From: Selaginella moellendorffii
Taxonomy: Eukaryota; Plantae; Lycopodiophyta
DNA: 64,000 bases
NCBI RefSeq assembly: GCF_000143415.4
Contig: NW_003314270.1
Span: 536,666 to 600,665, forward strand
Direction of reading: 5' to 3'
Part shown: positions 797-50,739 of the stretch, in pieces
How positions within the stretch are numbered: position 1 is the first letter of the stretch
Layout of the letters: each line of letters opens with the position of its first letter
Notes under the pieces: generated by a model
Database searches by the model: none
Seen by the model: only the letters and a program-made list of their open reading frames with translations
Told to the model about the DNA's origin: nothing
Program-made: the position numbers and the translations under genes

Positions 797-812
797 TTTG
801 GTATCAGAGAAG

Positions 813-8022: not shown

Positions 8023-8026
8023 CTAA

Positions 8027-10053: not shown

Positions 10054-10080
10054 ATGGTAAGTCTTTTAGGCCAAGTAGAA

Positions 10081-10240
10081 AATGGCATGAGGCCACATGC
10101 CATTCAGTAGCAATATTGGCATGCACCGATTGGGCTCTCGAGTGCAGTCCGGTTACAGATGGCGTGTAGCCTCACGCCATCTTAGGATGCAGCCTCAAGA
10201 CATCTGATGCAGTGGTGAATGGCGTGTGGCCTCACATTAT
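10081..10240. repeat. Three copies of the 22-bp palindrome ATGGCRTG-N6-CAYGCCAT in intron 1
   Basis: Copies at 10082-10103, 10159-10180 and 10219-10240. Further copies at 11496, 12995, 20742, 20933 and 50774. Confidence 0.9.
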
Positions 10241-10295
10241 TTCCAACTGCTAGCTTTTCATCTGTCAGCTCTAATTGTTGTGCATTTCTGAACAG

Positions 10296-12852
10296 GCGAG
10301 GAATTGCGTTCTTCTTCCAGCCACTATCAATGTGGATGCAGAGAAGGGGGAGGAGCTCATCAGTTGGACTTTCGGGATGGAAGGCGAGGATCTGAGGCTG
10401 TACAACACAGATGGTGGGAGAAAAGAATGCATGGGGATCCTCATCCAAGTGACAGACACTCCATGCAATTCCATGCAAGAATATGGACTGGCACTTGTGG
10501 TAGAGACAGCGTCCGCCTTCAAGATCCACCTTGCACATCCTAGCGGCTTCCCGGAGGGGGGCAGCGGCTATGAGGAATTCCTAGAGGGAGCTAGGGAGAG
10601 GTTGTCCAGGAGGCCCACAATTTCAAAGACGCTGCGGGACTATGAAGATCACATGGAATCCATGGACCTCACCTACGGCGATGTTCAAAAACTATATTCC
10701 AACATTGAGCCATTGAGAGTGCCTCCAGTTCGCGAAGCGAAGGGGAAGGGGGTCGATCTGGAAACTACCCCGAAGCAGAAAAGGGTGGTCAAGCTCAAGC
10801 CGACGTCCGACTCTCCTGCTCCAAAAAAGAAGCTACTCGGTGATGCCATTGCCTCGGGTTTGAACACTACACCCACCAAAAAGAAGAGCCACAAAGAGCA
10901 GAAAGAGCAAGAAGAGGCAGCAAAAATCGTCGCAGATAATAGTACTTGTTACTATTCCAACAAAGTATATACAATCAACGTGAGCCGTATCGACATCCAA
11001 AGCAAATACAACCACATGCTAGTATTTGATGAGTGGGTGGAGAAACTGAAGCAGAAGATGCTAGCAAGTCCAGTAACACTCGACATCGCAAACGTGATCC
11101 CCTACTACCGAACAATGAAGGGCGAGACGAGGTTTCCAGACTTGATCAATAGGAAGGTGTTGGACGATCAGAACATCTGGTTCTATACCGTCTCCGGGCA
11201 GCATTCTAGCTTGGCAATGCAAGAGATAGTTGTGGATATTATGGTGGGTGAGGAGGTGAAGAAAGTCTTCAAGACAAGAGTTGTCCGCCTGATAAAAGGC
11301 AACTCGCCCCTCCGATCTATCATATACATCTCCCACGCGCAGAATGTCAAGCAAGAAACGTGTTACAAATCGGGTCTGCACGAGACATTGGCACGAACAC
11401 GGAAGCTCTGGGTTCAACTGAAGAAGCCACAAAAACCAAGACAAGGACGTGCACTAGCAACTAGCGCTTGGCAGGTAAGCCTCGTTGCATGTGGCATAGC
11501 ATGTGGCCTTACGCCATTTCCATTGCAGGAATTCTCGAGTCTTCTCTCGAAAACACTGGGGGTCAATGACACACTCAACATCCATAACATTCTACTCGCG
11601 ACAAAAGTTGTTTTTGACAAATGGGTAGATGTGCTGAGGAGGTACCATGATGGGGAGTTGCTAAACTCAATGGGTGTGGAGGACGGCCGGAAGCCCAATG
11701 ATTTGAAGCTCAACGCCTTGCGTTTCTCGCTGTCTCTAGACGACGATGACCTTCTGACAGTGGCTAATGCTCTTCTACGTGGTGAGGTAGTCTTCAACAA
11801 GACCAAAATGACTCCCGGCCATATTGTGACATACGAGGACTTGTGCACGACTCTGAGAGCTCGTGCACTATTGAAGGATTGGATCCTCGAGCAAGTGGCC
11901 GTGGAGAGGGTGAGCATCAACACTACGCAAGAGATGATGGAAGAGCTGGAGTTGTCAAATGAAGACATTAACGAGTACGTGAAGGGGGCCCCCAAGTTCA
12001 TCGATCTGCTGCGGGATGCCACGAAAAGTAAAGCTGAGAAGTTGGATCAGTATCCAAATTTCATTAAGAGGGATGTCGACCGCCGGCTTCAGAAACAGCT
12101 CGACCCCGCAGCAGAGGCCTATCGAGAACCTTACCGGGTATACGTGAATTCGAATGAGGATCAAAGGTGGAGGAGCATCGTTTCCCGCGGAGATGAGCAG
12201 GTCAAGAACATCTTTTGTGTGATGGACTTCACAAATGAGGAGATCACTCATGCAGACGAAGTCAGCTCCATCATTGACTTAATGGTGGGACTTGCGGAGG
12301 TGGAATCTTCAGTCCACTATATGATCTACGACTCCGAATCCTATCACAAGTTCTGGAAAGCCTTGAACGAGGTGAAGGCTCAGTTGAAAGGCAAGGAGAT
12401 GCGGGAGATCCATGGGATAATGGTTAAGAAGAAGATACCGACGAATGTCTGCATCTTCACACTCGCCCTTGTTATTGGTCCTGCAGCAGAGTGGGACTGG
12501 AGTGACTTCTCAGCTTCGTTCGACAAGGCCAATCGAATTGATCTGAGGGAGGTCAATTTACCCGTGCCTGAGGAACTGAAGACGGCTATGGAGCTTTTGA
12601 ATCCAGAGAAAGCTCCAGGTGCAGCATGGGAAATGCTCAGCTGGGTCTTCAACGCAATAGCGGGTGGGTCACCTGCTTCCGACTCCAAGGGCAAATGCAT
12701 TGTCGAGTACAACTGCGGCGGACTATTCTTTCGAGCCGCACTACTCAAGGGTGTCCCGTGTGTAGCGGTGACAAACTCCATTGAAGAGGTGACTTCAATG
12801 GAGCATATAATTACAGTTGCCAAAGAAAAACAGTATCTTCTCTGCGAACCTG
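10296..12852 (+). CDS. N-terminal exons: ParB/Srx-like domain (FYTVSGQHSSLA...ISHAQN) and beta-class MTase-like domain (NPEKAPG...GKCIVEYNCGGLFFRAALLKGVPCVAV)
   Basis: 864-aa ORF 10275-12869 containing an in-frame 54-nt intron (11475-11528). Motif resemblance to ParB-N G-x-H/R and to the PF01555 order HPxxKP...VLDPFxGSG..AA...GR; no DPPY/SPPY (MDFT at that position). Confidence 0.6.
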
Positions 12853-14074
12853 GTGAGTACGCACTTTAAGTTTAAATGTTATGTCACAAGCTCTGTATGC
12901 AGGAGCGTGGCCACCCCCAGATGCTGAAACGGCGTTAACAGCTACTGTTGAAGATACCCATGTTGGGCCGAGCTCACAACCTGCACAAGGTAAGGTCACG
13001 TGAGGCCTCACGCCATTTTGATTATAGATCGTTGTGAATATTCAGACATGAGGATTGAAAAGCACACTGGTGGCGTGTGTAAGAGACTAAATTTTCCATT
13101 TTACTTTAGTCACTTAACCACATGTCTGACCACTTGGAGGAGTCTCATTGACAACCTCCATAAGTCCAACTCAGGACTTGGGGCTTGCTAGCCCTGAGAA
13201 TGGCATCCATGCCACTCAACCTTAGCACTTGGTCCAAGTGCTCCACGTGTCCGATCCCATGATCGACACCCCAAGGTATCACCGACGTACCGGCCCGTTA
13301 CGCTAAGGCCATGCCCATTTACCTTGGTCACACTAGTGGTCCAACACCACTTGCATCTCCGTCTTGGCCCTCCAAGACTAGGCAAACCATCCGTGAGTGG
13401 TCATCTCAGATCCACTCCTTAGCATCCTTAGGATGCCCACCGACAAGGGGAATAGCCTTCCCCAATATCCCTCTGTCAGTCCCCACTAAGTCCCTTTCTG
13501 CCCCTGGCCGTGTTTGCCAACACTGCCACTGGATCGAGACCCACAGGCCCGACCACTTAGTCCTACGGTCCTCTAGGACTTCCTCACCACACGACTGTGT
13601 CCTTGGTCACTACCCCAGAGGACTGCTCCTCTTCCTTTCCACAGTCTGGGCCTTTGGGACAACATTTCGGAACACCGTGGCCTTACGCGAGCCACCTAGG
13701 TACTCTCCTCGCCTTCTGCCCTTGGGTGCTCTAGCCATGGGCTTAGAGCGGGTTCCATTGAGCCACACCAGGTATCCAAGTAGGTAGTGCCACCCACACT
13801 TGGACTAGGAGCATCGGCCAGTCGATCTCCCGGGGGAACTAGAGCCGGCTCTTGAACACTTCACCAAGCTACCCCGCTTGTCGGTCCGTGTTCACTCTAG
13901 TCTTGGACTTCCCAGTGGGCATCTCATCACCCAACACTGGGTCCGGCCTTCCTGGGCCAAACTGGCCTTTCCTGGCCAAACTGGCTCCACTGCAGTCCTC
14001 CCCCTACTATACTTTTGGAGCTCACCAAACCCCCCAGGGTCTGGGAGACGAACGCTTTGGGCTTTCACCCTCTC

Positions 14075-14556
14075 AGGCTCCGGACTCGGACTCGGACTCG
14101 GACTCGGATTCGGACTCGGACTCGGACTCGGGCTTGGGCTCGGTCTCGGCCTTGGTCTCGGTCTCGGTCCCGATCTCGGTCTCAGTCTCGGTCCCGATCT
14201 CGGTCCCGGTCTCGATCTCGACTTCGGACTCCATCTCGGACTCCATCTCGGACTCCATCTCGGGTCCATCTCGGGTCCATCTCGGGTCCATCTCGGACTC
14301 CATCTCGGACTGCATTTCGGGTCCATCTCGGACTCCATTTCGGGTCCATCTCGGGTCCACCTCAGACTCCACCTCGGACTCCATCTCGGACTCCATCCCG
14401 GGTCCATCTCGGACTCCACTTCGGACTCCAACTCGGGTCCATCTCGGGTCCACCTCGGACTCCATCTCGGACTCCATCTCGGGTCCATCTCGGACTCCAC
14501 TTTGGACTCCAACTCGGGTCCATCTCGGGTCCACCTCGGACTCCATCTCGGACTCC
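14075..14556. repeat. Compound micro/minisatellite inside B LTR: (GGACTC)n, (GGTCTC)n, then 11/12-mers GGACTCCATCTC / GGGTCCATCTC
   Basis: Read directly. Repeated at about 19842-20452, 37636-38116 and 43433-43891 with different unit numbers. Confidence 0.95.
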
Positions 14557-16250
14557 CACGTGTCATGTGTTGGTCCTTTTGGGTCCCTTTTTGGAGCCTC
14601 ACCTTTTGCTCGCTTCGTGCTCGTTCCTCGAGCACTTTGTTGGGAGTTCTACTCCCGCTCTTGATTTTTCAAGTCGGAGCTTTTGGTCCAAACGTGTTAC
14701 GCTCGTTTGGCTCTCGCTTCGGCCACTACTATGTGGCGCCCTTCCGGCTCCACTTTGGGGCCTAGGGATTTTGTGTCTCACAACTCCACCACCCATAGAC
14801 GAAGTTCGATGTCCTCATCGAACGGTAAACCCTTTCATAAAGTAACACCCACACGTGTTACCATTTCCATCCTTGGCACCTAGCCAATCTTTGTCTATGG
14901 TTTGACATCAAAGGCTCACCATGCCTTGTCCATCCTTTAAGGAGCGTAGTCTCTCCAACTTAGAGACTGATTGGACCATATGTAATGGTTCTCTCCTTTT
15001 ATTGGTTTAGTTCTCACTAAACCTTTTAGAGACCCTTCTCTAAGTCAATCCCACTACTCCTTCTCGAGTAGTCTCAATTTCCATCGATATATAACCTTTG
15101 CACTTTGGAACTTTGAATTTTGACTTCTTGGAGTCAATTTCCTAGGTGTCTCCAACACCTTGCATTGCACAGTTTGTGCGACTCCACTTCCCTATCCTAG
15201 GAAGTTCATTACTTGAGGGCACCATCATCCTCTCTTCTATTTCGTGCCACCTTGGGCACTAAGTTCCATTTATCACACTTTGTGCTAGGGTTGTCCATCG
15301 CCCTATCATTTGGCTACCTTACCGCTCCCTCCCTTGGAGCTTCCACTTTCGCCAAATCGGAGTAATTTGGAATCCCTCCTTGGAAACACACTTCCTTTCC
15401 CGCAACTTGTTAGCGTCCAACACATTAGTGTTCCTCGCCTAACTTTGTCACTTGGATTCCTTCCAAAGGATTCCACGGCCCTATCTTGGCCACTCATCTT
15501 TTGCTCCTATCCGTTGATTGTTGCACGAAGAAACATCGAATCTCTACCTCCCTCCTTGAGGTATTGTTTCGGTTCCATAGCAAAGACTCTTCTTTGCCAA
15601 GTCCGGAGGATGTTCACCCCTAGTACGTCTCTTTAGCATCTTCTGCTATGGGCTCTATCCACGGCCCAACTTCGTGACCCTCCCATGGGTCTTTTATAGA
15701 GACTACTTTCCTCGGACTCACTATGCCATCGCACGGACATAGTTTATTTCCCTTAGGTGCTCTTCCCACTTGGTTATTACGACCAAGCCACACCACCTTA
15801 AACAGTTCAATTTCAACATTTTGAACCAGGAGCTTCATTCCTTAGCCAACCAAGGACCTTGTCCTTTTCTGGCCATAAGATCACCTAGTGATCTCACCTT
15901 GGCACCTTAACAGAGTTGCCAAGAGGTACTTGGGTTTCTAGACCTCCAAGTTGTTGACTATAACCCCGGGGGCATCCCCCACACTTGGCGGTGCACCCAA
16001 GCTAGCCCTTACGGCCAAGGGTTCATAGCAACTGAGATTAGGTGTCCCCATCTCACTCACCACGACCTTGGTGCCACTTGCACCAAAGTGTTCAAGTTAG
16101 ATATGCTGAGCTTTCACACTAAGCAATCTAACTGTGCATCACGACTCCGAGGCATCCCTCGCTTGGCGGTGTGCCCAAACCAGTCTCCCCACTGAGAGTC
16201 CATGACCACCGAAATATGAGTGTCCTCATATTCCAAACCATCACCACGCC

Positions 16251-16365
16251 CTAGTGATTTGGGACTCGAACCCAAGCACTAGAGGGTCGGGACTCGAACC
16301 CAACCTCCGTATATGCATCTACGGACGGCATCACACTAGATGCCTGGCGTGACTCCCCACGCCGG
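16251..16365 (-). ncRNA. Structured RNA module: five consecutive stem-loops, two of them tRNA T-arm/B-box mimics (GGG-TTCGAGT-CCC)
   Basis: Minus strand: GGCGTG-N6-CACGCC, GGCATC-N6-GATGCC, TCCGTA-N8-TACGGA, GGTTGGG-TTCGAGT-CCCGACC, CTAGTG.TTGGG-TTCGAGT-CCCAA..CACTAG. Also in B2 (about 39844-39958) and decayed in D (about 58670-58766). Confidence 0.55.
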
Positions 16366-19300
16366 TGCACCAACCTCTTTTTAAAGCGCACTACAGATCA
16401 CAGCTTAGGAACCTAGTTCCTCCACACTGCCAAGTCCTCTCACTTGACATGTCTGTGATCATGCATGGACTCCTCCATGCTCGGCCCCCTGGCCCACCCT
16501 TTTTGAAGATATCACCTTCAACTAGGGTCTTTGTTCCCCCGACGTGCCAATCTCACTTGGCAAGTCCTCCGACCATTGTAACATGGTTCCTGCATAAGCG
16601 TGAAAGTCCTTGACCATCGACTTTCGTTCAAAGCCCTTTCTTTGAACACTCGGGAACTACTTCCCTAACCTTGATAACCTTGCCTCATGGCAAGCTTCAA
16701 GACCACGCTTCTGCTGCGCCACTCTGATTTTGCGCGTTCCATGAACCATTTACACTTGGCCTTTCTAGGTACTACGCTACCTAGAATCGTCTTTGGGAAC
16801 CTTGAAGGAACTCTGTCCCTCAGCTTGCTAAGGCCTCCCCTTTCGCAAGCTTTATAGTTGCCATATAGTCTAACATGGACAATTCCATATTTTAGACTCT
16901 CCATGGCATCATGGTTGCTAACAACAACATCCTCGAGCACTCTCTTTATTCTCCACTCCCAACTTTCATAACCACTGTTGGATATGCCCTTTGATTCCTA
17001 TGGTTCAGTTCCATCCCAACACTACTTGCCTTTGGCTTCACACCTTTCCTTCGGTCATTCTCCTCCAGACCAGGAGGATAGCTTTGCACTTTCTATCATG
17101 CCTTAGCAAGTATTCTTAGGGATGAACCTACCCAATAGCCCAAGGAGTGGTTCCTCAATCCGGGTATGCTCAGCTTATAATCCCACACACTGGGGTTACA
17201 TTGTTGCTTATGGGCCTTTACATGCCCATCACTAGCCTTGCCAAAATTCCAATTTTGGCTTTGTCCAACTTGGGTAGACAGTCCTCTCCTATCTTCGCAA
17301 CCTTGAACATTTGGATAGCACCTTCTATCCATCATTCACTAGGGACTTAGTCCCTTGGGCTTTATCCATTGCCCTCGCAACATCAAACACCACCTTCTGG
17401 TGTTCTAAAGTGTTCAGGTGTCCCAATGATGGCTTTCTTGACAATGAGTATTTCCTTTTATGACATTGACTTACTATATCGCAACATAAGCAACTTATCC
17501 CCCGTAAGGGTATATCCGACTTCCCTATACTAGAAGTCTTGGGTAGCTACCTTCTACCCGTTTAACCAGTTATTTTGCACCTCTTGCTTAGTTGCCTCAT
17601 AGTTGTCAAGTCCTACAACTCATTGCTTGGTGCTTTCACACCTCCATCACTATCTGGGTCACCACACTCCAACTGCATGCTCTACAGCTTAGGCTATGCC
17701 ATTCCCATTTCCATTGGGATTCCTTTGGCAAGGGGTTCTCATGAACCCACCAACATAGCCTCAAGGTATCACACCTTGGCACATTTGGTGTCTCCACACC
17801 ATCGGCTCCACGAGCCTACCTCTATGACATTTCCCTTCGTGTCTAAGTCTTTGCCAAGACCAACACCGCTCTTTCTCATGCCAACCATCCGTTAGCACTG
17901 CCCCATAGAGGTCACACACAACTTTATGTCAAAGTTGTTTTCTTCTGGGAACACCTTTCCCATAACTTTAGCATGGCACATTTTGCCATTGATGAGATAC
18001 TCTCTATTCTCATCCTTGGATCCTATGATCCCCCCCCATCCTTTGTGGGGTACAACGCACCTCAGTCCAAATGCTTCATTCAGTCCTTTTTAGGACCATC
18101 CCTTGACTCTACTTGAGTCGTCTAGCAGTTTTGGACTTGGTTAATCCACCGACCCGTAAGGTCCTACTTGTGAGGCACTAGCTCACTGGAATACACATCT
18201 TGCATTCCGGTCCTACTCAAAAGGACTATTTTCACAAGTGTTACTCCGACACTTGATTTTGTTCTCTGGGGGCAACCTTTGCCCCTTAGGACTACTTGTC
18301 CATGTGATGAGAATACCAACTCATCCACTTAATACACCCCCAACTCCTTGGGTTGTTCCAGCATTTATTAGAGGTAACCCCGGCTACCATTTCAAGGACT
18401 TGAGTCCTCTTCCGTATTTGACCTTCCACGGTCATTACCTTTGGTCTCACATTCATGAGCACCAACCTCAACTATATGAGGATAATCTTGTGACTCCTTT
18501 ATTGTTTTGGAGTCTCTATCTTTCCCGTGATCCCAACTTTAGTTGTTTACCACAACAACCTAAGACAATTTGCTGAGACAAATGCTCATCTGGATCACAT
18601 CCTCAACTCAATGAGGAAAACCTTGCACTGTTCCCAAGATCCCAAAGTCGTTCCATTATTGGCCCTTTTCTATCCACCACCTCGTCTACAAGTTCACACA
18701 TGAACTGTAATGGAGAGCCATGTCTTCCAGACTTGCTACTCCTCAAGGATAGGCCCACTCCTCGGACCTTCCGATGCCAACACTAGTGGTGATATACTTG
18801 AGCACCAATAAAAGTCGGACTAAGGAACAGCTCCGATACCAAATTGTAAGAGACTAAATTTTCCATTTTACTTTAGTCACTTAACCACATGTCTGACCAC
18901 TTGGAGGAGTCTCATTGACAACCTCCATAAGTCCAACTCAGGACTTGGGGCTTGCTAGCCCTGAGAATGGCATCCATGCCACTCAACCTTAGCACTTGGT
19001 CCAAGTGCTCCACGTGTCCGATCCCATGATCGACACCCCAAGGTATCACCGACGTACCGGCCCGTTACGCTAAGGCCATGCCCATTTACCTTGGTCACAC
19101 TAGTGGTCCAACACCACTTGCATCTCCGTCTTGGCCCTCCAAGACTAGGCAAACCATCCGTGAGTGGTCATCTCAGATCCACTCCTTAGCATCCTTAGGA
19201 TGCCCACCGACAAGGGGAATAGCCTTCCCCAATATCCCTCTGTCAGTCCCCACTAAGTCCCTTTCTGCCCCTGGCCGTGTTTGCCAACACTGCCACTGGA

Positions 19301-21145
19301 TCGAGACCCACAGGCCCGACCACTTAGTCCTACGGTCCTCTAGGACTTCCTCACCACACGACTGTGTCCTTGGTCACTACCCCAGAGGACTGCTCCTCTT
19401 CCTTTCCACAGTCTGGGCCTTTGGGACAACATTTCGGAACACCGTGGCCTTACGCGAGCCACCTAGGTACTCTCCTCGCCTTCTGCCCTTGGGTGCTCTA
19501 GCCATGGGCTTAGAGCGGGTTCCATTGAGCCACACCAGGTATCCAAGTAGGTAGTGCCACCCACACTTGGACTAGGAGCATCGGCCAGTCGATCTCCCGG
19601 GGGAACTAGAGCCGGCTCTTGAACACTTCACCAAGCTACCCCGCTTGTCGGTCCGTGTTCACTCTAGTCTTGGACTTCCCAGTGGGCATCTCATCACCCA
19701 ACACTGGGTCCGGCCTTCCTGGGCCAAACTGGCCTTTCCTGGCCAAACTGGCTCCACTGCAGTCCTCCCCCTACTATACTTTTGGAGCTCACCAAACCCC
19801 CCAGGGTCTGGGAGACGAACGCTTTGGGCTTTCACCCTCTCAGGCTCCGGACTCGGACTCGGACTCGGACTCGGATTCGGACTCGGACTCCGACTCGGGC
19901 TCGGGCTCGGTCTCGGCCTCGGTCTCGGTCTCGGTCCCGATCTCGGTCTCGGTCTCGGTCCCGATCTCGGTCCCGGTCTCAATCTCGACTTCGGACTCCA
20001 TCTCGGACTCCATCTCGGACTCCATCTCGGGTCCATCTCGGGTCCATCTCGGACTCCATCTCGGACTCCATCTCGGGTCCATCTCGGACTCCATCTCGGA
20101 CTGCATTTCGGGTCCATCTCGGACTCCATTTCGGGTCCATCTCGGGTCCACCTCGGACTCCACCTCGGACTCCATCTCGGACTCCATCCCGGGTCCATCT
20201 CGGACTCCACTTCGGACTCCAACTCGGGTCCATCTCGGGTCCACCTCGGACTCCATCTCGGACTCCATCTCGGACTCCATCTCGGGTCCATCTCGGACTC
20301 CACTTTGGACTCCAACTCGGGTCCATCTCGGGTCCACCTCGGACTCCATCTCGGACTCCATCTCGGACTCCATCTCGGGTCCATCTCGGACTCCACTTTG
20401 GACTCCAACTCGGGTCCATCTCGGGTCCACCTCGGACTCCATCTCGGACTCCCACGTGTCATGTGTTGGTCCTTTTGGGTCCCTTTTTGGAGCCTCACCT
20501 TTTGCTCGCTTCGTGCTCGTTCCTCGAGCACTTTGTTGGGAGTTCTACTCCCGCTCTTGACTTTTCAAGTCGGAGCTTTTGGTCCAAACGTGTTACGCTC
20601 GTTTGGCTCTCGCTTCGGCCACTACTATGTGGCGCCCTTCCGGCTCCACTTTGGGGCCTAGGGATTTTGTGTCTCACAGCGTGTCGAAGAAGGACAAACA
20701 GACAAGCAATAGGAAAAAAGGAGGTACAAATTATATTTGCAATGGCGTGTGGTCTCATGCCATTCCTTGCAGGAGACATTTCTTCAAAGGCAAAACAGGC
20801 AAGCACCAGCCAAGCTCAAACTGACAGTGGTCATAAAAAGCGAAAGCACTTTGGATAGTCGTCGGGATCAGAGGCGTTTGATTAGAAAAGGAAGAAGGGC
20901 AATGAAAAGATGATAGGTAATGCCTCACGGTTATGGCATGTGTGCTCATGCCATTCATTGCAGATCAAGGGCTGAGTGAAAGCAGCCAGTCACCACCTCC
21001 TGACTCAGATTCCTATGGCGGACTCCCCTTCCCCAATCTCAATGGAGAGGTACAATGGATGAGGGATGTTTTTCAAGTCAGGGCCACGTTTTTCTCATCT
21101 CGTCGTCTTCGAAGGGTGTGTCAGGAATCCCCCAATTCTTGCCAC

Positions 21146-21248
21146 ATTCCTGACTCTCGAGACACTTCGCTATTCCTGACTCTCGAGACACTTTCCTATT
21201 CCTGACTCTCGAGACACTTCCCGATTCCTGAGTCTCGAGCCACATTCT
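21146..21248 (+). repeat. 26-bp tandem repeat (ATTCCTGACTCTCGAGACACTT....) x3 plus a variant, in U3 of C LTR
   Basis: Read directly; duplicated in the 3' LTR at about 26293-26395. Confidence 0.85.
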
Positions 21249-21469
21249 TGATGATGATGTGGTGCCTCCTCGACCTCAGCTATATTTAGGCCGTCCTCGA
21301 TCCAAGAGTGGTGGAGCTTCATCAACCTATAGTATATATAGGTTAGCCTTGTTCCATTTCTCCACAATCTGAATCAACACCAGTCTAAGGCTTCTTCTTT
21401 GTTTTCACTAGCTTTTTCTCTTTGTCTTTAGCATTTTCCAGTCTTGATCTTGTTGGGGGTCTTGACAGT

Positions 21470-21485
21470 TTGATTCAGATTGTGG
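21470..21485 (+). other. Self-priming PBS of element C
   Basis: TTGATTCAGATTGTGG is the exact reverse complement of LTR bases 21362-21377, which start about 22 nt after TATATATA (21333-21340). No TGG tRNA-type PBS is present. Confidence 0.8.
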
Positions 21486-21564
21486 TTTTTGCTTTTCTTT
21501 TAGCTCGCTTTGATTATTTGATTGCCTTTGTCTTTTTCCCCCTTTCTTTTCTTTCTTCTTGCCA

Positions 21565-22536
21565 ATGGAGTCTCCAAGCCATCCTGATTTCTTTGCTGAA
21601 GTCCTTGCAAAAATCCAGTCTGAGAATACCGAGCTGAAGGCGACCCTTCTTCGCACGCAGCAGGAGCTTGCTTCACTTTCAGCTCAAGGATCCAGCAAAG
21701 TTCCTGAACCGAAGGTGAGCTTCCCAGCGAAATTTTCAGGCAAGCGTTCGGAGCTTCACGGATTCCTGAACCAGATGGAGTTGATCTTCGCACTTCAACA
21801 TCGACAGTACCCTACTCCCGAGTCTCAAATCGGCGTGATTGGGACGTTGCTCGAAGGTGCAGCTTTGTCATGGTTTTCTCCTCTTCTGGAGAAGAGCATG
21901 AAAGGGGTCGTGGTTCCAGAGCTTTTGGATCTTCAATTGTTCAAAGAGAAGCTCGAAGCATGTTTTGGCGAGACGAATCGGGTTCGAGCTGCTACCACAA
22001 AGATGAGACGTCTCTCTCAGGGGTCTCGTCCTGCCTCGATCTACGCTGCAGAGTTCCAACTCCTTGCTTTGGACACTCAGTGGGATGAGCGGGCCCTGAT
22101 TGACCAATTTCGTTTCGGACTCAACAACGGTGTCAAGGATTTGTTGCTCACCATGGAGGATCCCAAGGACCTGTCGGATGCCATCAACAAAGCTGTTCGA
22201 TGTGACAATCGTCTCTTTGAACGTCGTCAGGAAAGTCGCCGCGCCGCTGTTTTTCCGTCCCAGACTCAGGAATCCCAGCTTGAGTCTTCGGGGCATACTC
22301 CTGAACCTACTGCTCCAGTTCCAATGGATATTTCTGGTACTCCCCGACTCATTAGAGGGAAGTTGAGTCCTGCTGAGAAGCAACGTCGAATATCTCATAA
22401 TCTTTGCTTCTATTGTGCTGATCCTAATCACAAAGCAGCTGTATGTCCCAAGAAGCCTCCTCGACTGCTCGAGTTCACTCTGCCTCAAAGTCCACCTCTA
22501 TTGCAGTCAGGAAACGACCTTGTCCAAACAGAGTAG
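21565..22536 (+). CDS. gag: Gag (retrotransposon capsid + CCHC zinc knuckle)
   Basis: PEPKVSFPAKFSG, LSQGSRPASIYAAEF, PMDI and CFYCADPNHKAAVC motifs. Confidence 0.93.
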   Translation: MESPSHPDFFAEVLAKIQSENTELKATLLRTQQELASLSAQGSSKVPEPKVSFPAKFSGKRSELHGFLNQMELIFALQHRQYPTPESQIGVIGTLLEGAALSWFSPLLEKSMKGVVVPELLDLQLFKEKLEACFGETNRVRAATTKMRRLSQGSRPASIYAAEFQLLALDTQWDERALIDQFRFGLNNGVKDLLLTMEDPKDLSDAINKAVRCDNRLFERRQESRRAAVFPSQTQESQLESSGHTPEPTAPVPMDISGTPRLIRGKLSPAEKQRRISHNLCFYCADPNHKAAVCPKKPPRLLEFTLPQSPPLLQSGNDLVQTE

Positions 22537-34488: not shown

Positions 34489-34601
34489 NNNNNNNNNNNN
34501 NNNNNNNNNNNNNNNNNNNNNNNNNNNNNNNNNNNNNNNNNNNNNNNNNNNNNNNNNNNNNNNNNNNNNNNNNNNNNNNNNNNNNNNNNNNNNNNNNNNN
34601 N
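34489..34601. other. Assembly gap (N run) inside the A3 5' LTR
   Basis: Run of Ns; its length keeps the same 13621-bp offset to the 3' LTR on both sides. Confidence 0.98.
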
Positions 34602-39600: not shown

Positions 39601-42600
39601 CTTATGGCCAAGGGTTCATAGCAACTGAGATTAGGTGTCCCCATCTCACTCACCACGACCTTGGTGCCACTTGCACCAAAGTGTTCAAGTTAGATATGCT
39701 GAGCTTTCACACTAAGCAATCTAACCGTGCATCACGACTCCGAGGCATCCCTCGCTTGGCGGTGTGCCCAAACCAGTCTCCCCACTGAGAGTCCATGACC
39801 ACCGAAATATGAGTGTCCTCATATTCCAAACCATCACCACGCCCTAGTGATTTGGGACTCGAACCCAAGCACTAGAGGGTCGGGACTCGAACCCAACCTC
39901 CGTATATGCATCTACGGACGGCATCACCCTAGATGCCTGGCGTGACTCCCCACGCCGGTGCACCAACTTATTTTTAAAGCGCGCTACAGATCACAGCTTA
40001 GGAACCTAGTTCCTCCACACTGCCAAGTCCTCTCACTTGACATGTCTGTGATCATGCATGGACTCCTCCATGCTCGGCCCCATGGCCCACCCTTTTTGAA
40101 GTTATCACCTTCAACTAGGGTCTTTGTTCCCCCGACGTGCCAATCTCACTTGGCAAGTCCTCCGACCATTGTAACATGGTTCCTGCATAAGCGTGAAAGT
40201 CCTTGACCATCGACTTTCGTTCAAAGCCCTCTCTTTGAACACTCGGGAACTACTTCCCTAACCTTGATAACCTTGCCTCATGGCAAGCTTCAAGACCACG
40301 CTTCTGCTGCGCCACTCTGATTTCGCGCGTTCCATGAACCATTTACACTTGGCCTTTCTAGGTACTACGCTACCTAGAATCGTCTTTGGGAACCTTGAAG
40401 GAACTCTGTCCCTCAACTTGCTAAAGCCTCCCCTTTCGCAAGCTTTATAGTTGCCATATAGTCTAACATGGACAATTCCATATTTTAGACTCTCCATGGC
40501 ATCACGGTTGCTAGCAACAACATCCTCGAGCACCCTCTTGCTTCTCCACTCCCAACTTTCATAACCACTGTTGGATATGTCCTTTGATTTCTATGGTTCA
40601 GTTCCATCCCAATACTACTTGCCTTTGGCTTCACACCTTTCCTTCGGTCATTCTCCTCCAGACCAGGAGGATAGCTTTGCACTTTCTGTCATGCCTTAGC
40701 AAGTATTCTTAGGGATGAACCTACCCAATAGCCCAGGGAGTGGTTCCTCAATCCGGGTATGCTCACCTTATAATCCCACACACTGGGATTACATTTGTTG
40801 CTTATGGGCCTTTACATGCCCATCACTAGCCTTGCAAAATTCCATTTTTGGCTTTGTCCAACTTGGGTAGACAGTCCTCTCCTGTCTCCGCAACCTTGGA
40901 CATTTGGATAGCACCTTCTATCCATCATTCGCTAGGGACTTAGTCCCTTGGGCTTTATCCATTGCCCTCGCGATATCAAACACCACCTTCTGGTGTTCTA
41001 GAGTGTTCGGGTGTCCCAATGATGGCTTTCTTGACAATGAGTATTTCCTTTTATGACATTGACTTACTATATCGCAACATAAGAAACTTATCCCCCGTAA
41101 GGGTATATCCGACTTCCCTATACTAGAAGTCTTGGGTAGCTACCTTCTACCCGTTTAATCAGTTATTTTGCACCTCTTGCTTAGTTGCCTCATAGTTGTC
41201 AAGTCCTACAACTCATTGCTTGGTGCTTTCACACCTCCATCACTATCTGGGTCACCACACTCCAACTGCATGCTCTGCAGCTTAGGCTATGCCATTCCCA
41301 TTTCCATTGGGATTCCTTTGGCAAGGGGTTCTCATGAACCCACCAACATAGCCTCAAGGTATCACACCTTGGCACATTTGGTGTCTCCACACCATCGGCT
41401 CCACGAGCCTACCTCTATGACATTTCCCTTCGTGTCTAAGTCTTCGCCAAGACCAACACCGCTCTTTCTCATGCCAACCATCTGTTAGCACTGCCCCATA
41501 GAGGTCACACACAACTTTATGTCAAAGTTGTTTTCTTCTGGGAACACCTTTCCCATAACTTTAGCATGGCACATTGCCATCGATGAGATACTCTCTGTTC
41601 TCATCCTTGGATCCTATGATCCCCCCCCATCCTTTGTGGGGTACAATGCACCTCAGTCCAAATGCTTCTATCAGTCCTTTTAGGACCATCCCTTGACTCT
41701 ACTTGAGTCGTCTAGCAGTTTTGGACTTGGTTAATCCACCGACCCGTAAGGTCCTACTTGTGAGGCACTAGCTCACTGGAATACACATCTTGCATTCCGG
41801 TCCTACTCAAAAGGACTATTTTCACAAGTGTTACTCCGACACTTGATTTTGTTCTCTGGGGGCAACCTTTGCCCCTTAGGACTACTTGTCCATGTGATGA
41901 GAATACCAACTCATCCACTTAATACACCCCCAACTCCTTGGGTTGTTCCAGCATTTATTAGAGGTAGCCCCGGCTACCATTTCAAGGACTTGAGTCCTCT
42001 TCCGTATTTGACCTTCCACGGTCATTACCTTTGGTCTCACATTCATGAGCACCAACCTCAACTATATGAGGATAATCTTGTGACTCCTTTATTATTTTGG
42101 AGTCTCTATCTTTCCCGTGATCCCAACTTTAGTTGTTTACCACAACAACCTTAGCCAATTTGCTGAGACAAATGCTTATCCGGATCACATCCTCAACTCA
42201 ATGAGGAAAACCTTGCACTGTTCCCAAGATCCCAAAGTCGTTCCATTATTGGCCCTTTTCTATCCACCACCTCGTCTACAAGTTCACACATGAACTGTAA
42301 TAGAGAGCCATGTCTTCCCGACTTGCTACTCCTCAAGGATAGGCCCACTCCTCGGACCTTCCGATGCCAACACTAGTGGTGATATACTTGAGCACCAATA
42401 AAAGTCGGACTAAGGAACAGCTCCGATACCAAATTGTAAGCGACTAAATTTTCCATTCTACTTTAGTCACTTAACCACACCTCCGACCACTTGGAGGAGT
42501 CTCATTCACAACCTCCATCAGTCCAATTCAGGACTTGGGACTTGCTAGCCCCAAGAATGGCATCCATGCCACTCCACACTTGCACCTGGTCTAAGTGCTC

Positions 42601-44117
42601 CACGTGTCCGGTCCTGAGACCGACACCCAAAGGTACCACTGACATCTCGGCCCGTTACGCTAAGGCCATGCCCATTCACCTTTGCTGCACTAGTGGTTCA
42701 ACACCACTTGCATCACCACCTCGTCTCTCCAAGACTGGGCCATGTGTCCACGAGTGGTCATCCTAGATCCACTCCTTAGCATCCTTAGGATGCCCACAGA
42801 CCTGGGGAGTTGCCTTCCCCAAAGTCCCTTTGTCAGTTCCTACCAAGTCCCTTTCTGCCCTTGGCCGTGTTTGCCAACACTGCCACTGGATCGAGGCCCA
42901 CAGGCCCGACCACTAAGTCCCACGGTCCTCTGGGACTTCCTCACCACATGACTGTGTCCTTGGTCACTACCCCAGAGGACTACTCCTCTTCCTTTCCACA
43001 GTCTGGGCCTTTGGGACAACATTTCGGAACACCGTGGCCTTACGCGAGCCACCTGGGTACTCTCCCCACCTATCGCCTTTAGGTGCTCTAGCCATGGGCT
43101 TAGAGCGGGTTCCGTTGAGCCACGCCTGGTATCCAAGTAGGTAGTGCCACCCACACTTGGACTGGGAGCATCGGCCAGTCGATCTCCCGGGGGAACTAGA
43201 GCCGGCTCTTGAACACTTCACCAAGCTACCCCGCTTGTCGGTCTGTGTTCACTCTAGTCTTGGACTTCCCAGTGGGCAGCTCATCACCCAACACTGGGTC
43301 TGGCCTTCCTGGGCCAAACTGGCCTTTCCTGGCCAAACTGGCTCCACTGCAGTCCTCCCCCTTACTATACTTTTGGGGCTCACCAAACCCCCCAGGGTCT
43401 GGGAGACGAACGCTTTGGGCTTTCACCCTCTCAGGCTCCGGACTCGGACTCGGACTCGGACTCGGACTCGGACTCAGATTCGGACTCGGACTCGGGCTCG
43501 GGCTCGGTCTCGGCCTCGGCCTCGGTCTCGGTCTCGGTCCCGATCTCGGTCTCGGTCTTGGTCTCGGTCCCGGTCTCGGTCCCGGTCTCGGTCTCGACTT
43601 CGGACTCCATCTCGGACTCCATCTCGGACTCCATCTCGGACTCCATCTCGGGTCCATCTCGGACTCCATCTCGGCGTCCATCTCGGACTCCATCTCGGAC
43701 TCCATCTCGGACTCCATTTCGGGTCCATCTCGGGTCCACCTCGGACTCCATCTCGGCGTCCATCTCGGGTCCATCTCGGACTCCACTTCAGACTCCAACT
43801 CGAGTCCATCTCGGACTCCACTTCGGACTCCAACTCGAGTCCATCTCGGACTCCACTTCGGACTCCAACTCGAGTCCATCTCGGACACTCCCACGTGTCA
43901 TGTGTTGGTCCTTTTGGGTCCCTTTTTGGAGCCTCGCCTTTTGCTCGCTTCGTGCTCGTTCCTCGAGCACTTCGTTGGGAGTTCCACTCCCGCTCTTGAC
44001 TTTTCAAGTCGGAGCTCTTGGTCCAAACGTGTTACGCTCGTTTGGCTCTCGCTTCGGCCACTACCATGTGGCGCCCTTCCGGCTCCACTTTGGGGCCTAG
44101 GGATTTTGTGTCTCACA
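36638..44117 (-). mobile_element. Family B copy B2 nested in A3; LTRs 36638-38342 and 42435-44117
   Basis: TSD TTTAC (36633-36637 / 44118-44122). Same PBS, PPT and internal region as B1. Confidence 0.95.
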
Positions 44118-47100
44118 TTTACGAAGTTGCTTGGGTAAATGATGATCAACCCCAAAGTGGTTGATGGAGAAGCTAGTCTACTTGCACAAAGTAGCATTGT
44201 AGTAGCTTTGACTGGATTCTCGCTGGTGGTCCATTATGCTAAGCTTATGTTGGTACCTTGTTTCCTTGAGGGTTTGCCCATAAGGTGTTGGGAATGGGTT
44301 GTAGCATTCATTTGCTATAGCTCATCTGTTGATCCGTTAGCACTTGGAGTAGATTATTGGATGGAGAAGGTGTGAGGTTGATGCATTGACATCGCTAGCA
44401 CTTGTGTTAGTGGAAGTGGCATTGTTGATTCGAGTGATGAGGAATTTTCCTTAGAGCTTGATTTTCCATGTCATTTTTCTTGTTAGTGTTTTGGCTTCAC
44501 ATTGGATCTTGAAGGTGATTGAAGAAGAGTGTTAGTGCAATATGGATATCCGAAGATGTGGTCTTCGTGATCAAGCCTTGGATGTTCATTTTGCACTTTG
44601 CGGATGTCGGTGTTGGATATTGGAAAAATGGGCAAAGATGTTCGATGCTTAAGCATATTGATGGATCATGAGAATTTGTGTTGAGGTGAACCTATGTGAA
44701 GTTGTAGGTAGGAGGAAGTTGGTTGAGTCTTGAAAGTTTGCAATCCTGGACTGAGAGTCATTCTTTCTCTAGGATGGGAAATTTTCCACAAATTTTCTTA
44801 GACTTCTCCAATGGCTGATCTGTTGGTCACTTTGCTCGAAAACCATTCCGTTTTCGTAAGCCAGTACAAACTAGTGAAGGGGTTGGAGTTGACTTCGGTT
44901 GGCTTAGATCTTAGTAGGTAGTTTGTAAGATGCGACCCGAAAGGGATGCTAACTTTTGGGGCTAGAGCAATTGAGTTGGATAGAGTCTGGAGTTGGTGTA
45001 GAAAAGTGGCTGTTGTGCTTTTCTAAGAAAGGTGACCCTTGTGCCTTTCTTTTGTAGCATTGTGCTTGGTGGCAGTTTGCACCTTGCATTACGTTAGACT
45101 CTATGAGAGTAGTGAGCTCTCACTGATCTTGACTTGGTCTTGGTGGCTGCACCTTGGCTGAGGATGGTGATGTCCAACTTAGTTGTTTGAGGTTAAGATG
45201 TTGGTACCTGTACTATAGCTTTGTCTATGAGGAGGTTGTGTACCGATATGAGTTCATCTCATGGTCTTCACTTTCGTTTCGGCTGAGTGTTGATCATGCA
45301 TAGCTAGCCTCTTCAAGACATGCTCAGAGCTAGTGGCTAAATGTTTGAGTGAGCTTATTGCGGTTGAGTTGGATTCGGGTGGTCATTTAGTTTGTGCTTG
45401 TCTATGAACTTTTATCTCGTACCTGGGGTATTATGTTCATGTTGGACAAGTATGTGACTTGATGATATGAGTTGGTGTTTGGGTCTTGTGAACGTAAGTT
45501 GAAGAGTGATTGTTAGTTGCTTTGCGACTAGTGATTACTTGTAGACTTCATCAAAGACAGTTGACACTTGCTTTGCTCGATGATGATTTAGCAGTGATGG
45601 GCTTGCTTTACCGGATGGTGTTGCGGAGGATCGTGTCGTTAGACTTGCATAGGTTTTCTATGTTAGTATATCGATTCTATCTCTGTCGATATCATTTGGT
45701 TACGTTTAGTCTGTGGTGTTGGATTTCATTGAGTCTTGGATGTGGTGATTCACTCTTTGATGAAATGTTATCTGTAACTGAGTATTGCTGAAGGATTGGT
45801 CTCGGATACTAAGTAAAGTATCTTTGACCTGATTAGCTTAGTTGCTAGGAAGTTTTGAGTGGTGATTCACTTGTGCTTTCTTCTAGCTTTGTTATGGTGT
45901 TAATGGCATTGAAGTGATGCCTTATCGTTGATATTATTGATGTTGAGATTTGAGTGAAATGAGATGTCTCTCCGCAAGATTGATGTCGAGTTTCGTTAGT
46001 CTTGATGAAGATAGTGTTGATGATTTGGCTGTAGCTTTGTGTTGTTGGCATTCGTGCAATTGCTAATTAGCAACTGCATTGACGTTCAAATGAACTGAGT
46101 GGCAAGTTTGGGTTAGTTGTGTTCTAGACGAGATTGCTTAGTTGAGGTTGAGCTTTAGCTTTTCCTTGAAAAGTGATTTAGTCGTGGACAATGCTACCTT
46201 TAAGAGAGGAAGAATTAGTGTTCGATATTAAACTATTTGATTCCTTATTGGATTTCAGTTGGGATATATCGATCATTGATGATTTTTCTTATGCTTGTTA
46301 TGAGGTGAGTTACGTCTTGCTGTAGATGGATTCATGGAGGATCGTTTGGTGATCACTTGTTGAGCATAACTTTGCTATGCTTAGCTTTTGGATTGATGCA
46401 GAAATGCTCTTCATTAGCTTTGCATTATGAAGTTTGGCTTATGGATATGTTGAGGAGGATATTGTGGGTTGCACCATGATTTCTTCTTTAACATTAAAGT
46501 TGGTTCATGCAAGACTTGTGATTATTGTTAGACAAGATATGGCTATAGGCTTCTTCGAGCTTTTGGTTCTTTGAGTTTTATGCTCATTGTTCCATTTGTT
46601 AGAAGTTGTTGGGGAAGGCATTTTTGGCTCATTAGCTTCGATGTTGAAGTTGGCTTTTGCATTTAGCAATCATTGGTGATGATTGACTATCATCTAGGAA
46701 AGTTGATTATCCTTGTCGAAGGTTTTGCTTGATTATCGTTGACCTAGAATGATTTGCCATTCTTCGGGATAGTGGATTCTTTCTTCAATGACGATTATGC
46801 ATCTCTTTATTGATGGGATGATTGATGATCTTTCATGATGGTTAGTTGTTCTCTTTGATGGCTTATGGCTTTTTGCAATACCACATGTTGTTTGTGGTTT
46901 GCTCTGGATTGGTCTTTTGGGTTTGAGACATCAGTAGGATGTTGCTAACACTTGCTTGAGCAACTCTGGTTCCTTGGTATTGTTGATTGAGATCTATTCA
47001 GATTTGCTAGCGCAATAGTTGATATGAACAAGTGTTTGTTTGCTTTGCAACATTCATTTTGATCTGTTGATTGTTGCTCGAGTTAGTTTTGATAGATTTG

Positions 47101-49877
47101 GATGTTATTTCCTTTGGGTGATACATTTGCGAGCTTTGTGCTTGTCAGTCAATGCTACTTTGTGTTCTTTGAGTTCTCTCTAGTAAGTTGTTGGCTTACT
47201 GTCTACTATCTTCGGTAGTTAAGTTTCATCATTGAGTTTCCTTGATGATATATTAGCTATTGAATTTTGTTGGCTGGTGATTCTTATGTTTACCAGTTAT
47301 AATGATCTTGTTGGTTCCTATACTGTAATACTAGTTTATCGGATGATAACTTGTTTAGAATACTTTTGTGTTCTACTCTAAGATATAATCACTAGTAATT
47401 AAGCTTCTCAGATATCATTGTCTCTGACTTTGATATTGTCCATCTATTGATCTTTGAGTTTGGGCCAGTAATAGGCAGACTGGCTTCGGCACTTCGTGTG
47501 CATGGTGAAATCTCTAGTCATGGGGTAGCTGCTGTCGACTGGTCACATAACCCGCCTCTCTGTCGATGTTCCTTGTTACGTTGAAAGGGCGTGACCGTGT
47601 AAACAACTCTAACTGCCTGTTGACAGTAGTCTATCTAAACCTTACCGACGGGTTTGGTTTCTTTGCTCAGGAGGGTTGGGGCCTCTGGCTTCTCTCTCTA
47701 TGTTCCTGCGGGCAGGGCATATCACACTTTTGTAGCTGGGTGACGCCCAGAGCAGCAAGGGTGGCTGACTCCGTTGGTCATTTCCTTGTCGGCGACGGCC
47801 GGGAGGTGTCTGAGCTGGTAGCGCATCCGCGTTAGACAAAGAGGTTGCCCCCTTAACTCATTTAAGTTGGTGCATTTCTCACATAGTGTGAGTACCGTGA
47901 ACTTTTTCTGGAGTTGTTTCCTTGGCGGTATTCTAGACTCGAGTGTGCATCGACGAGGACGTCGATCTTCCCAAGGGGGGGAGAGTGTCGCGAATGTGAC
48001 TTCGGGTATCGAAAGTTACTTGTCGGCTAGTCCTTACGGACACTCTTACCTTACTGCCACGATGGCAGGAGGTCGGTATTGTTGGACCCGTTATCAGTTT
48101 CCCACTTGAGCTAGTTGAGAAACTGGTCAATGACCATGCACTTAGATTGGATAAACATAAGGTAGGAACCCTATGTGTTTCTTGCTGAGCATACTCGGCC
48201 TGGTTTGAGAAACTTGAGTCATTGGCTTGCACTTGCTAGTATCAAGAACCCCCGCGATATTGAGATTGGTCCCTCAACATCGCTACATGATAGCTTACCG
48301 TGTCTGCCAAACACCCTCGCTATCATGCCCTTTGTGTTAGTCTCATTTTGGTCCCAAATGCTATTTATGGAAAGTGTCCAGATTTGCTCATTTGGCATAT
48401 CTACGGAATGTAGAGATTGGCCTGAACACAATGGTGTTTGTCCCGTGTCCAAATTCGCAATCTAAGGACATTCCATATTTAGTAAGTTTCGAGCTTGTCC
48501 CAGAGACTAACTCTTGATACTAAGGGAGGCTTGGGGTGAAAGCCCAAAGCGTGTGTTCCTCAAGGGGGGGGGGCTATGGGGGGTTCCAAATGTATAGTAG
48601 GGATAGTGGGTAGGTCGGGCATGGCCGACCAACCTGAGGCATAGTCTAGCTCCCGCTTGCGTGCCTGTCCTTGTTCTGCGTCCGGCTTGGGTCTAAGCCC
48701 AAGTTCCATTCCATGCTAGTTGGTGGAGTACCCATATCCTCGCGTTAGGCCACCGGTATGCCGAAATAGCGCCAGACTCCGTTTGGCTCCGTTTTGCGTG
48801 CTGGTCCTGGCATTGGGATGCTGGTTGCTCTAGGACTGTTCCAAGTCGCTCCGGGCCCCTGTCCCTTCACTCCTTGGGCTATATGCTCGGGAGTTGCTCC
48901 GTGGTCCGGTTCCATCACTCCTTGGCGTCACGCTTGGGAGTTTGGCACCGTTCCTTCGTTCAGTGGCCCAAGGCCCTGAACCTCGGGTTACTATGGACAC
49001 GTGGCACGGACACGTGGTATGTGACACGTGGCATTTGTCACGTGGCACAAAGAGGGTTTAGGTTCCGCTTCGTGGTGTTATCCTATGGTAAATCACCATA
49101 GGATAAAGGGTCAAAACCACGTGCGCTACACAATCCTTCAAAATCAGTAGTGCGCCCAAGTGATATCGGTCCTAGTTCCTCAATAGCAGTTGATGGTAAA
49201 TACAATATAGTCGATTCAATGTGCTAATGAGTTTGTTTTTAGTAGCCAGTAAGGAGGATACCATCTCAATCGAAGGGAGATATTTGGACATGCATATGGA
49301 TCCGCCAGTGGACTCTACTTGCCTACAAGAGTTATCAGAGCTGGTGGAGGCTACTATCCATATCAACGCCAAGCAAGTTGACCACGCTCCACTTGATGCT
49401 GCCCATACCACTGAGTCAATCTTGTCCACGTATCCAACTGACGGTGACCAGGCGCCATTGGACCCGCATGAGGCCGCCCCAGCCGCTGAGCCGGTCGTAT
49501 CCTCATTTCCAACGGACTCAACGTGTGCCCAATCGTCTGACTACGGGCCGTTGGAACCTCCCTACACCGCCCCTGCTGCCTGTTTGGTCATGTCCACTTT
49601 GCCAACGGAGGCACCAGCTGAAATAGCGTGTGATCACACGCCATCGGAACCACCCCATACCACTATTGAGCCAGTTTTACCAGAGTCTACAGCTGAAATG
49701 GCATGTGCCCACACACCATCGGATGCGATTGACCCCACATTGCAGAGGAGAGTATTTCCGCCCTTCACGTTTCCTCGACCAAAACCCTCTCAACGACCAT
49801 CAGGAGCACCATTCGCTAATATTGTAGATGGTAAAATTGACTTGTACCATTTTTTATGCTGACGCATTTCATTTCAG

Positions 49878-50739
49878 AGTCACGGCGAAGGTACTGTATC
49901 GTTTTTTATCTGAACGGTGTCCTTTTCTCCCATGAGCGTGGCTCGTCCTCGAATGTCACTGCACCCTCCAAAGCCTGCGGTCGCAAGTTGGTCAAAAGAG
50001 ACAGATTCACATTAATCACACGGGAGAAACTGCAGGATCTAATAATGACCATGCGACACTTAAAACATAGGGCCGGGTTCAATTTGCAATTGGGAGTTTG
50101 GACATCCATGATGTGCCACAATGCATTAACGTTGCTACAGATGATGCACGATCAAACGCGAGTAATATTACCATTTGACTTTCTCCTAACGCAAGAGGAT
50201 TGCTTGACTATGGTCCATGTGGGGGTAGCAAGCCCATCTTCGTCAAGCCAGAGGCTGTAGTGATGAACCGGACTGATAGGTCAAGTGAAATCCTCATCAT
50301 CGATGACTCGCCGATTAAAACTGCAGTGAACACGCACACATATGCAGTGCACCCCATCTCTTGCAGTATGGAAACTAGGGAGAAGAAACCGTATGTTCTG
50401 GGGGACCTTGCAAAACGGCTTGGAGCAATGGTGATAAAGAACCGGCTAGTCCAGGAGGTGGCTGCAAAAATCAACCAAATGGCAGATGGAATGGTATATC
50501 AGAAGCCATTTGATCGGACAGACACCAGTCATCATTTATGGCATGTATATTGTCTAGCCAAGCACTATCCGCATCTCCATAATCTGCTCAACCGGATGGG
50601 TTCTTCGACCACTGAACATGAGCGTGGACGTATTAGAAAAGAGATGGCATTACTATTGGGTTTAAATCCTGATAGTGTGGAGAGTGATGAAATTCCAAGA
50701 TTATTGTATAGGCGTTGGAGGCAAAAAATAACAGTCTGA
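49878..50739 (+). CDS. Last exon: FCP1/NIF-like HAD phosphatase domain (frameshifted)
   Basis: CIVFYLNGVLF (DLNGxL motif I, D>Y), GVWTSM (motif II), KPIFVK (motif III) and LIIDDSPIK (motif IV), split between ORFs 49856-50260 and 50200-50739. Confidence 0.7.

Follow-up and report, generated by a model that had tools for sequence, protein, structure and literature searches.

The window analysed here, 64,000 nucleotides of contig NW_003314270.1 of Selaginella moellendorffii (assembly GCF_000143415.4, positions 536,666 to 600,665), contains a single fusion gene of three domains, which is hidden by insertions of long terminal repeat (LTR) elements and survives as a non-functional copy. The gene joins a ParB-like, a methyltransferase-like and a NIF/HAD-like domain, and its host carries it as a repeat of very high copy number. 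We take the window locus to be the dead copy of a plant gene that exists many times over, likely an accessory gene belonging to a large DNA transposon and with a predicted self-binding role, and give this combined reading about even chances. The novelty lies in a land-plant version of a ParB-methylase transposon gene with a phosphatase-like tail, a kind of gene that is itself known from algae.

Gene structure beneath the LTR insertions

The coding frame is recovered after removal of four LTR elements flanked by target site duplications (TSDs), one of which encloses a fifth, and of ten GT-AG introns. The gene structure was rebuilt independently from the window, with the introns as predictions, and the elements were delimited by self-comparison and end motifs. 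The rebuilt coding sequence has 4,919 nt (1,640 codons minus one base) in 11 exons. Disabling lesions are TAG codons at positions 917 and 926 of the frame and a single frameshift in the last exon, localised only to about 50215-50250. The rebuild bears out the initial annotation of the locus, which had described a 1640-codon gene that emerges once four retroelements and ten introns are taken out, with two TAGs and one frameshift. Introns 1 to 10 measure 239, 54, 50, 56, 49, 47, 57, 49, 47 and 47 nt (nine of them 47-57 nt); intron 2 is in phase 0 and introns 3-10 are in phase 1 throughout. No splice joint appeared in the pieces from two runs guessed to be RNA, which are unspliced.

All exons lie on the forward strand. 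The predicted exon 1 (10054..10056) consists of the ATG only, next to a GTAAGT donor, and is followed by intron 1 (10057..10295). Exon 2 (10296..11474) encodes an N-terminal beta-rich domain, a lysine-rich linker and the ParB-like domain (about 10930-11474, with SGQH at 11193-11204). Intron 2 (11475..11528) has the same position in the window, fern, lycophyte and two unnamed homologues. Exon 3 (11529..12852) leads from a helical domain into the methyltransferase-like domain, with motif remnants MDFTN (motif IV, from 12219) and IVEYNCGG (motif I, from 12699). The linker begins with exon 4 (12903..12989) and continues through exon 5 (13046..13077 and 20684..20723), exon 6 (20773..20916, with the TAG stops at 20856-20858 and 20883-20885), exon 7 (20964..21118, 26620..26724 and 33919..34195, the last part with an acidic tract), exon 8 (34253..34267, at 15 nt the least certain exon), exon 9 (34317..34364 and 49136..49195) and exon 10 (49243..49830), which carries Pro/Ala/Thr-rich repeats of 75 nt. 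Boundaries of the linker exons (codons ~845-1350) are predicted, with no homologue to back their exact positions. Exon 11 (49878..50739) encodes the NIF/HAD-like domain with the frameshift, the motifs FYLNGV (49904-49921), GVWTS and IIDDSP, and the stop codon at 50737-50739.

The insertions split exons 5, 7 and 9. Element A (13078..20678, TSD GCGTG) sits in exon 5. Exon 7 holds both element B (21119..26614, forward strand), a Ty3/Gypsy element with a chromodomain integrase and a TSD with one mismatch (GGGTG/GAGTG), and element C (26725..33913, TSD CTCGG). Element D (34365..49130, TSD CAATC), of the family of C in the opposite orientation, interrupts exon 9 and encloses element E (36638-44117), of the family of A. 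All five have TG...CA ends, and the low divergence of their LTR pairs (0-2.4%) marks the insertions as young. A run of 113 N lies within the left LTR of D, and the join across this element therefore rests on the TSD and the frame match. At element A, five records of run X1 and one contig of run X4 pass from 13075 directly into the sequence behind the element, which means that gene copies uninterrupted at this site exist. These are, for that position, the intact paralogs that the initial annotation had proposed to look for. The compared LTR parts of D are identical while the LTRs of the nested E differ by 1.1%, which points either to copying of D after E had inserted into it or to a collapse of the assembly at this place. 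A variable array built from 12- and 23-nt units occurs in the family-A LTRs (14078-14556, 19845-20455, 37641-38111 and 43436-43886) and remains open in several reading frames, on both strands.

Homologues and domain identities

A search of 1.84 billion representatives returned seven matches, of which five are relatives (Selaginella, Adiantum and unnamed contigs) and two, P0002 and P0005, were dismissed as chance. An alignment-based search gave 18 proteins, mostly gene models of Adiantum nelumboides. One of its matches, P0034, was also dismissed as chance, yet is counted among the 44 fern-family proteins considered below; L178, a glycosyltransferase, was dropped for the same reason. Searches by word matching brought up no close relative for the window open reading frame or for the protein P0011. 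The A. nelumboides model P0018 (1,246 amino acids) has the parts in the same order, joined by a short linker, and its NIF domain exceeds the Pfam cut-off; the 1,246-residue models form one 90% cluster of 20 members. P0018 matches the window by tblastn with E 3e-14 over residues 274-634. The ParB-like motifs, motif I and the DLNG motif occur together in one chain in 10 of the 44 fern-family proteins, all of them Adiantum gene models, and the fusion is therefore not a modelling accident of the window. This supports the initial proposal of a single fused gene, with the three-part architecture in ferns resting on gene predictions. The nearest neighbours in the Atlas are unnamed streptophyte clusters of 813 amino acids (0.97) and 1,673 amino acids (0.94). 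One fern model carries behind its ParB-like part an unnamed protein of 169 amino acids (P0049 residues 472-659, and P0050), possibly a second accessory gene.

The middle domain is supported as a degenerate relative of the beta-class DNA amino-methyltransferases (PF01555) lacking DPPY, as the initial annotation had proposed. Codons ~600-835 align by hhalign (probability 86.7, E 4.4e-6, 174-210 columns) to a profile built from 42 beta-class methyltransferases of phages, with motif IV ahead of motif I. The score is 46.2, whereas 60 column shuffles do not exceed 18.1 and the reversed profile gives 12.8. With the first profile setting (match columns taken from the first row) motif I alone aligned (P 6.7e-4), and nothing came from a profile of 15 rows of phage fusion proteins. 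The catalytic D/N/S-PP-Y/F/W motif is present in none of 10 plant rows versus 28 of 42 phage rows, and the FxGxG loop that binds S-adenosylmethionine is degenerate across rows (EYNCGG, DVFACG, DINTGG, EYGCGG). We consider it probable that this domain makes no methyl mark and acts as a DNA-binding or shielding module.

The catalytic motif of NIF or FCP1-SCP phosphatases of the HAD superfamily is DxDx(T/V). FCP1 proper, the phosphatase of the C-terminal domain of RNA polymerase II, is marked by a BRCT domain and a match to an FCP1-specific model. The NIF domain (PF03031) of fern P0018 scores 61 bits against a cut-off of 21.8 (E 1e-16). The last window exon scores 85 against the fern NIF domain, as the best of the break positions tried, compared with a maximum of 53 in 1,000 shuffles; its two halves alone matched no Pfam model. 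The DD motif (IIDDSP) and GVWTS are retained in the window exon. Among the 44 fern-family proteins examined, the first HAD motif is visible in 15, and it reads DLNG in each of them. The FCP1-specific NCBIfam model is unmatched, with only HAD-IIID and dullard-like models far below their cut-offs, and the Pfam scan contains no BRCT domain. The alignments thus support the last exon as a NIF-like domain in which the canonical DxDxT is absent. The FCP1/NIF phosphatase named in the initial annotation holds as a NIF-like exon and not as an active FCP1-type phosphatase, given the altered first motif and the missing FCP1 match.

The N-terminal module is likely, though weakly so, a ParB-type DNA-binding domain. 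ParB Box I and Box II fall in register with the profile at a relaxed threshold. The ten best named Atlas matches, which are language-model neighbours, all belong to ParB or methyltransferase families with scores below 0.8, and the nearest named clusters are phage ParB_N + N6_N4_Mtase proteins (0.77-0.78). Libraries of hidden Markov models gave nothing for the 5' domains. The GxxR arginine is missing in every row compared (SGQHSS, SGLHSI, DGQHTI, SGQHSA); in tested proteins this arginine is required for nucleotide binding (PMC12704722). Folds helped neither for this domain nor for the methyltransferase-like one. AlphaFold2 gave low-confidence models, with a mean predicted local distance difference test (pLDDT) score of 33 for the window open reading frame alone and 37 with a 14-row alignment. 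The Foldseek search of the PDB placed M1.HpyAVI at rank 4 (E 0.29), and VIA reached a best Z of 6.6, to STAS domains. Foldseek searches of the PDB and the wide and viral VIA searches returned nothing usable from such low-pLDDT models, and they are uninformative because both structure predictions are poor. Two helical PDB sequence matches (E 0.003) were absent with better alignments and are taken as chance. The ParB part of the initial annotation is thus weakly upheld by the profile and the Atlas neighbours and finds no backing in the arginine, the folds being uninformative. Its further idea of a clamp is unsupported as a cytidine triphosphate (CTP) clamp, the GxxR arginine being replaced in every row.

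Copy number, palindromes and possible roles

A first stretch of 3.9 kb carries 20,654 contigs of run X1, with a summed depth of 4.5 to 9.5 x 10^5 across all 30 bins, a quantity that does not equal copy number. Run X4, of just 2.5 million letters, also covers this stretch. The host probably carries hundreds to thousands of copies. Many near-identical, dispersed copies and inverted repeats at a ParB-like gene are both features of accessory genes on giant DNA transposons, and the window gene shows both. Of 81 places where the window copy differs from the others, 50 have A for G or T for C in it, the pattern of a methylated, decaying repeat. The share of synonymous coding differences (9 of 25 versus 28% expected, the 25 being among 40 listed of 94) is compatible with neutral decay and uninformative on selection. 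In one X1 contig, plant telomere repeats stand at 10429-10516 in place of 86 nt of another gene copy; these repeats and the chromodomain Ty3 type of element B mark the window as plant DNA. The abundance supports the suggestion of mobile-element cargo in the sense of a repeat-borne gene, and the gene probably rides a DNA transposon. One fern model, P0020, has a hAT-type transposase-like segment directly upstream of the gene (residues 1-348, Atlas top score 0.91).

The gene also carries a 22-base palindrome, ATGGCRTG-WGGYCT-CAYGCCAT. Ten sites with at most three mismatches lie in the 6,711 bp of gene DNA; the other 57 kb of the window contain none, and 0.03 matches are expected. Three sites are in intron 1 (10082, 10159 and 10219), one each in introns 2 (11496), 4 (12995), 5 (20742) and 6 (20933), two palindrome-like sites in exon 10 (49623 and 49698), and one 35 nt 3' of the stop codon (50774..50795). 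The R and Y positions are probably those that CG decay would give. The palindromes and the very high copy number are new here and were missed in the initial annotation.

We suggest that the intact protein would bind the palindromes in its own introns. The ParB-like and helical part may dimerise to read the palindrome, with no CTP clamp involved, which we hold to be slightly better than an even bet, and the dead methylase-like domain would serve there as the DNA-binding or shielding module. The phosphatase-like tail would act at these sites on the transcription or silencing machinery of the host. The NIF-like domain might dephosphorylate or trap a phosphoprotein, such as the tail of RNA polymerase, and so keep the element transcribable. 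This anti-silencing effect, modelled on VANC proteins, is a tentative proposal that we hold more doubtful than the binding itself. Binding, target and effect of the protein are all proposed by analogy. More speculative still is an ancient class of giant transposons in ferns, lycophytes and the plant of the window with phage-derived self-recognition, in which a ParB reader, a CG-shielding dead methylase and a HAD domain resetting the phosphorylation of the polymerase tail would work together. If true, this would be a second, unrelated anti-silencing mechanism of plant transposons, with a modular targeting head and an exchangeable effector, which would be a methylase or an oxygenase in algae and a phosphatase in land plants.

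Several observations weigh against the accessory-gene reading and its parts. The ParB (PF02195) similarity is marginal, with a score of 22.0 versus a maximum of 21.3 among 80 shuffles for a 34-row profile (P 0.014) and P 0.072 for a smaller 15-row profile. The ParB-like domain is matched by no Pfam, PHROG, NCBIfam or PDB model, and no helix-turn-helix was identified, the fern helical region giving a sub-threshold sigma-factor match alone (E 0.014-0.036). The first HAD motif is non-canonical in both plants (YLNGV in the window, DLNGL in the fern). The NIF tail is not universal, since the Selaginella model (451 amino acids) and P0011 stop without it. The palindrome pattern was derived from the same ten sites of the window gene. 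The hAT neighbour occurs in one of the 44 fern-family proteins and is a gene-model fusion, and no element ends, TSD or young transposase gene were seen for the window copy.

DNA-binding helper proteins of EnSpm and Harbinger elements act in transposition or in expression control. The protein could likewise bind the palindromes to assemble or target a transposition complex, or to damp expression of the element, with no role in anti-silencing. Four sites cluster at the gene start and in the first two introns like an operator array, and the canonical catalytic motifs are missing from both enzyme-like domains. Seven of the ten sites lie in introns along the gene, however, in the layout of VANC targets and not at known element ends, and a retained NIF domain would be unnecessary for such a role. 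We regard this as unlikely, albeit the best of the alternatives.

Less plausible is that the ParB-like and methyltransferase-like part works alone, the NIF exon being either a passenger acquired by capture or a gene of its own further downstream. Many fern models end after the methyltransferase-like exon (P0038, P0040, 905 amino acids), the Selaginella model lacks the tail, a low-complexity linker of 500 codons separates the parts in the window gene, and the evidence is entirely gene prediction. Order and strand are nevertheless the same in two families that are only ~21% identical, a phase-1 intron precedes the NIF exon in each of them, the window frame requires no new start codon, and a matching streptophyte cluster has 1,673 amino acids.

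An active methylase with a rebuilt site that marks the palindromes with N4-methylcytosine or N6-methyladenine, as proposed for a protein of Ectocarpus, is quite improbable. The motif IV aspartate and a glycine-containing motif I are retained in the window, fern, lycophyte and P0011, and each palindrome arm contains CG, with GGCC at the centre. Set against this are the universal loss of the catalytic motif in the 10 plant rows (kept in 28 of 42 phage rows) and the free variation of the residues after the aspartate (DFTN, DAAH, DSAN, DLRR). That an endogenous DNA virus, or a recent transfer from bacteria or phages, brought the gene in place of a transposon is very improbable, because the phage proteins nearest in the Atlas (0.77-0.78) are offset by ten spliceosomal introns, one common to several plants, by scanned reading frames none of which is a viral gene, and by phage, viral-contig (IMG/VR), metagenome and prokaryote genome scans without a relative, which detect close relatives only. 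The prokaryotic origin put forward initially accordingly lacks a recent source within the reach of the same scans.

Known systems and flanking sequence

The closest described system is the giant Sola1-1 element of Ectocarpus (Sola1-1_Ec32), a DNA transposon with a gene of 1,104 amino acids encoding a ParB-like and an N4C/N6A methyltransferase domain, whose protein is proposed to bind and modify its own element (PMC12477816). The window gene shares the order of a ParB-like before an amino-methyltransferase-like domain and, on our reading, the setting on a large DNA transposon. Compared by description only, it differs in lacking the catalytic motif, in carrying a NIF-like domain and in residing in a land plant. 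The architecture that seemed unfamiliar in the initial annotation is therefore not wholly new, as its ParB and methyltransferase part is already described in algal transposons (PMC12477816), and the fusion to NIF is without a description in the literature searched. In the red alga Bostrychia, PAG3 (and PAG2) of Plavaka elements has a ParB-like N-terminus with inverted-repeat arrays adjoining the gene, and PAG genes move between transposon superfamilies (10.1101/2025.02.11.637652). The window gene resembles them in the ParB-like N-terminus with a swappable effector, the inverted repeats and the very high copy number. The Plavaka effector is a 2-oxoglutarate oxygenase with the methylase in a separate gene, in contrast to the fusion in the window. 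Its repeats form tandem arrays beside the gene, whereas those of the window are single palindromes, mostly intronic. The roles of the algal ParB-like genes are untested proposals.

VANC proteins of Arabidopsis VANDAL elements are likewise encoded by the element, target short motifs in introns and non-coding DNA, and vary in their repeat-rich regions and exon structure (PMC5735166). No sequence kinship is expected, and binding and demethylation are experimentally shown for VANC, whereas the window gene is known from sequence alone. No proteins other than VANC are stated to be known for enabling a transposon to alter the chromatin it sits in (10.1101/2025.02.11.637652). Phage fusions of ParB_N and N6_N4_Mtase (PF02195 + PF01555) share the order of ParB-like, helical and beta-class methyltransferase domains (PMC12704722). 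They have ~410 amino acids and keep GxxR and DPPY, in contrast to the plant family, where both are lost while introns and two further domains have been added. The Marchantia protein MpDN4MT1 also places a prokaryote-type amino-methyltransferase fold in a land plant. It is an active host enzyme with TSPPY in two copies, for which the available sections mention no ParB-like or NIF domain (10.1101/2021.02.12.428880). Other ParB-linked methylase clades, none matching the window gene in the part available, are given in PMC4738411. Neither the three-domain gene nor a land-plant ParB-like transposon gene is described in the literature searched, which lay outside subscription journals, Repbase and supplements. 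With this locus come a family from land plants, fern reading frames that are intact and a specific candidate site of 22 bases, which makes the idea of self-binding reducible to a simple binding assay. Apart from the NIF tail the family is invisible to Pfam, yet at least two plant genomes contain it in great abundance, and for this reason it may represent large elements of a class still missing from annotations.

The left end of the element is outside the window, behind a nest of family-C LTRs in both orientations (1-9317) that parts the gene from the upstream portion of the element. Two LTRs in the nest (6875-8022 and 8027-9173) are only 4 nt apart, and one LTR end of 144 nt is duplicated. Between the nest and the gene, short direct repeats (9526-9926) differ in length among copies. 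CpG observed/expected is 1.16 over 9318-10053, and this CpG-rich region is likely the promoter. On the 3' side, a relic of a SWIM-bearing transposase-like gene (51182..51940, reverse strand) is cut off beside the gene. It is older and CpG-depleted (observed/expected 0.12 versus 0.70-0.73 in the gene) and is probably the flank or landing site, not a part or engine of the element. A short hairpin (51140-51165) just before the cut-off point is a candidate for the right boundary. Further downstream, 53200-58800 reads by eye as an old, heavily decayed Ty3-like element. The relic and the region 60100-64000, likewise on the reverse strand, share 73-83% identity and derive from one kind of intron-containing gene, both in decayed form. 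The SWIM-bearing gene at ~61000-63910 has a Cys/His-rich N-terminus and a SWIM finger below the cut-off (E 0.0013), and we take it to be, probably, a Mutator-like transposase.

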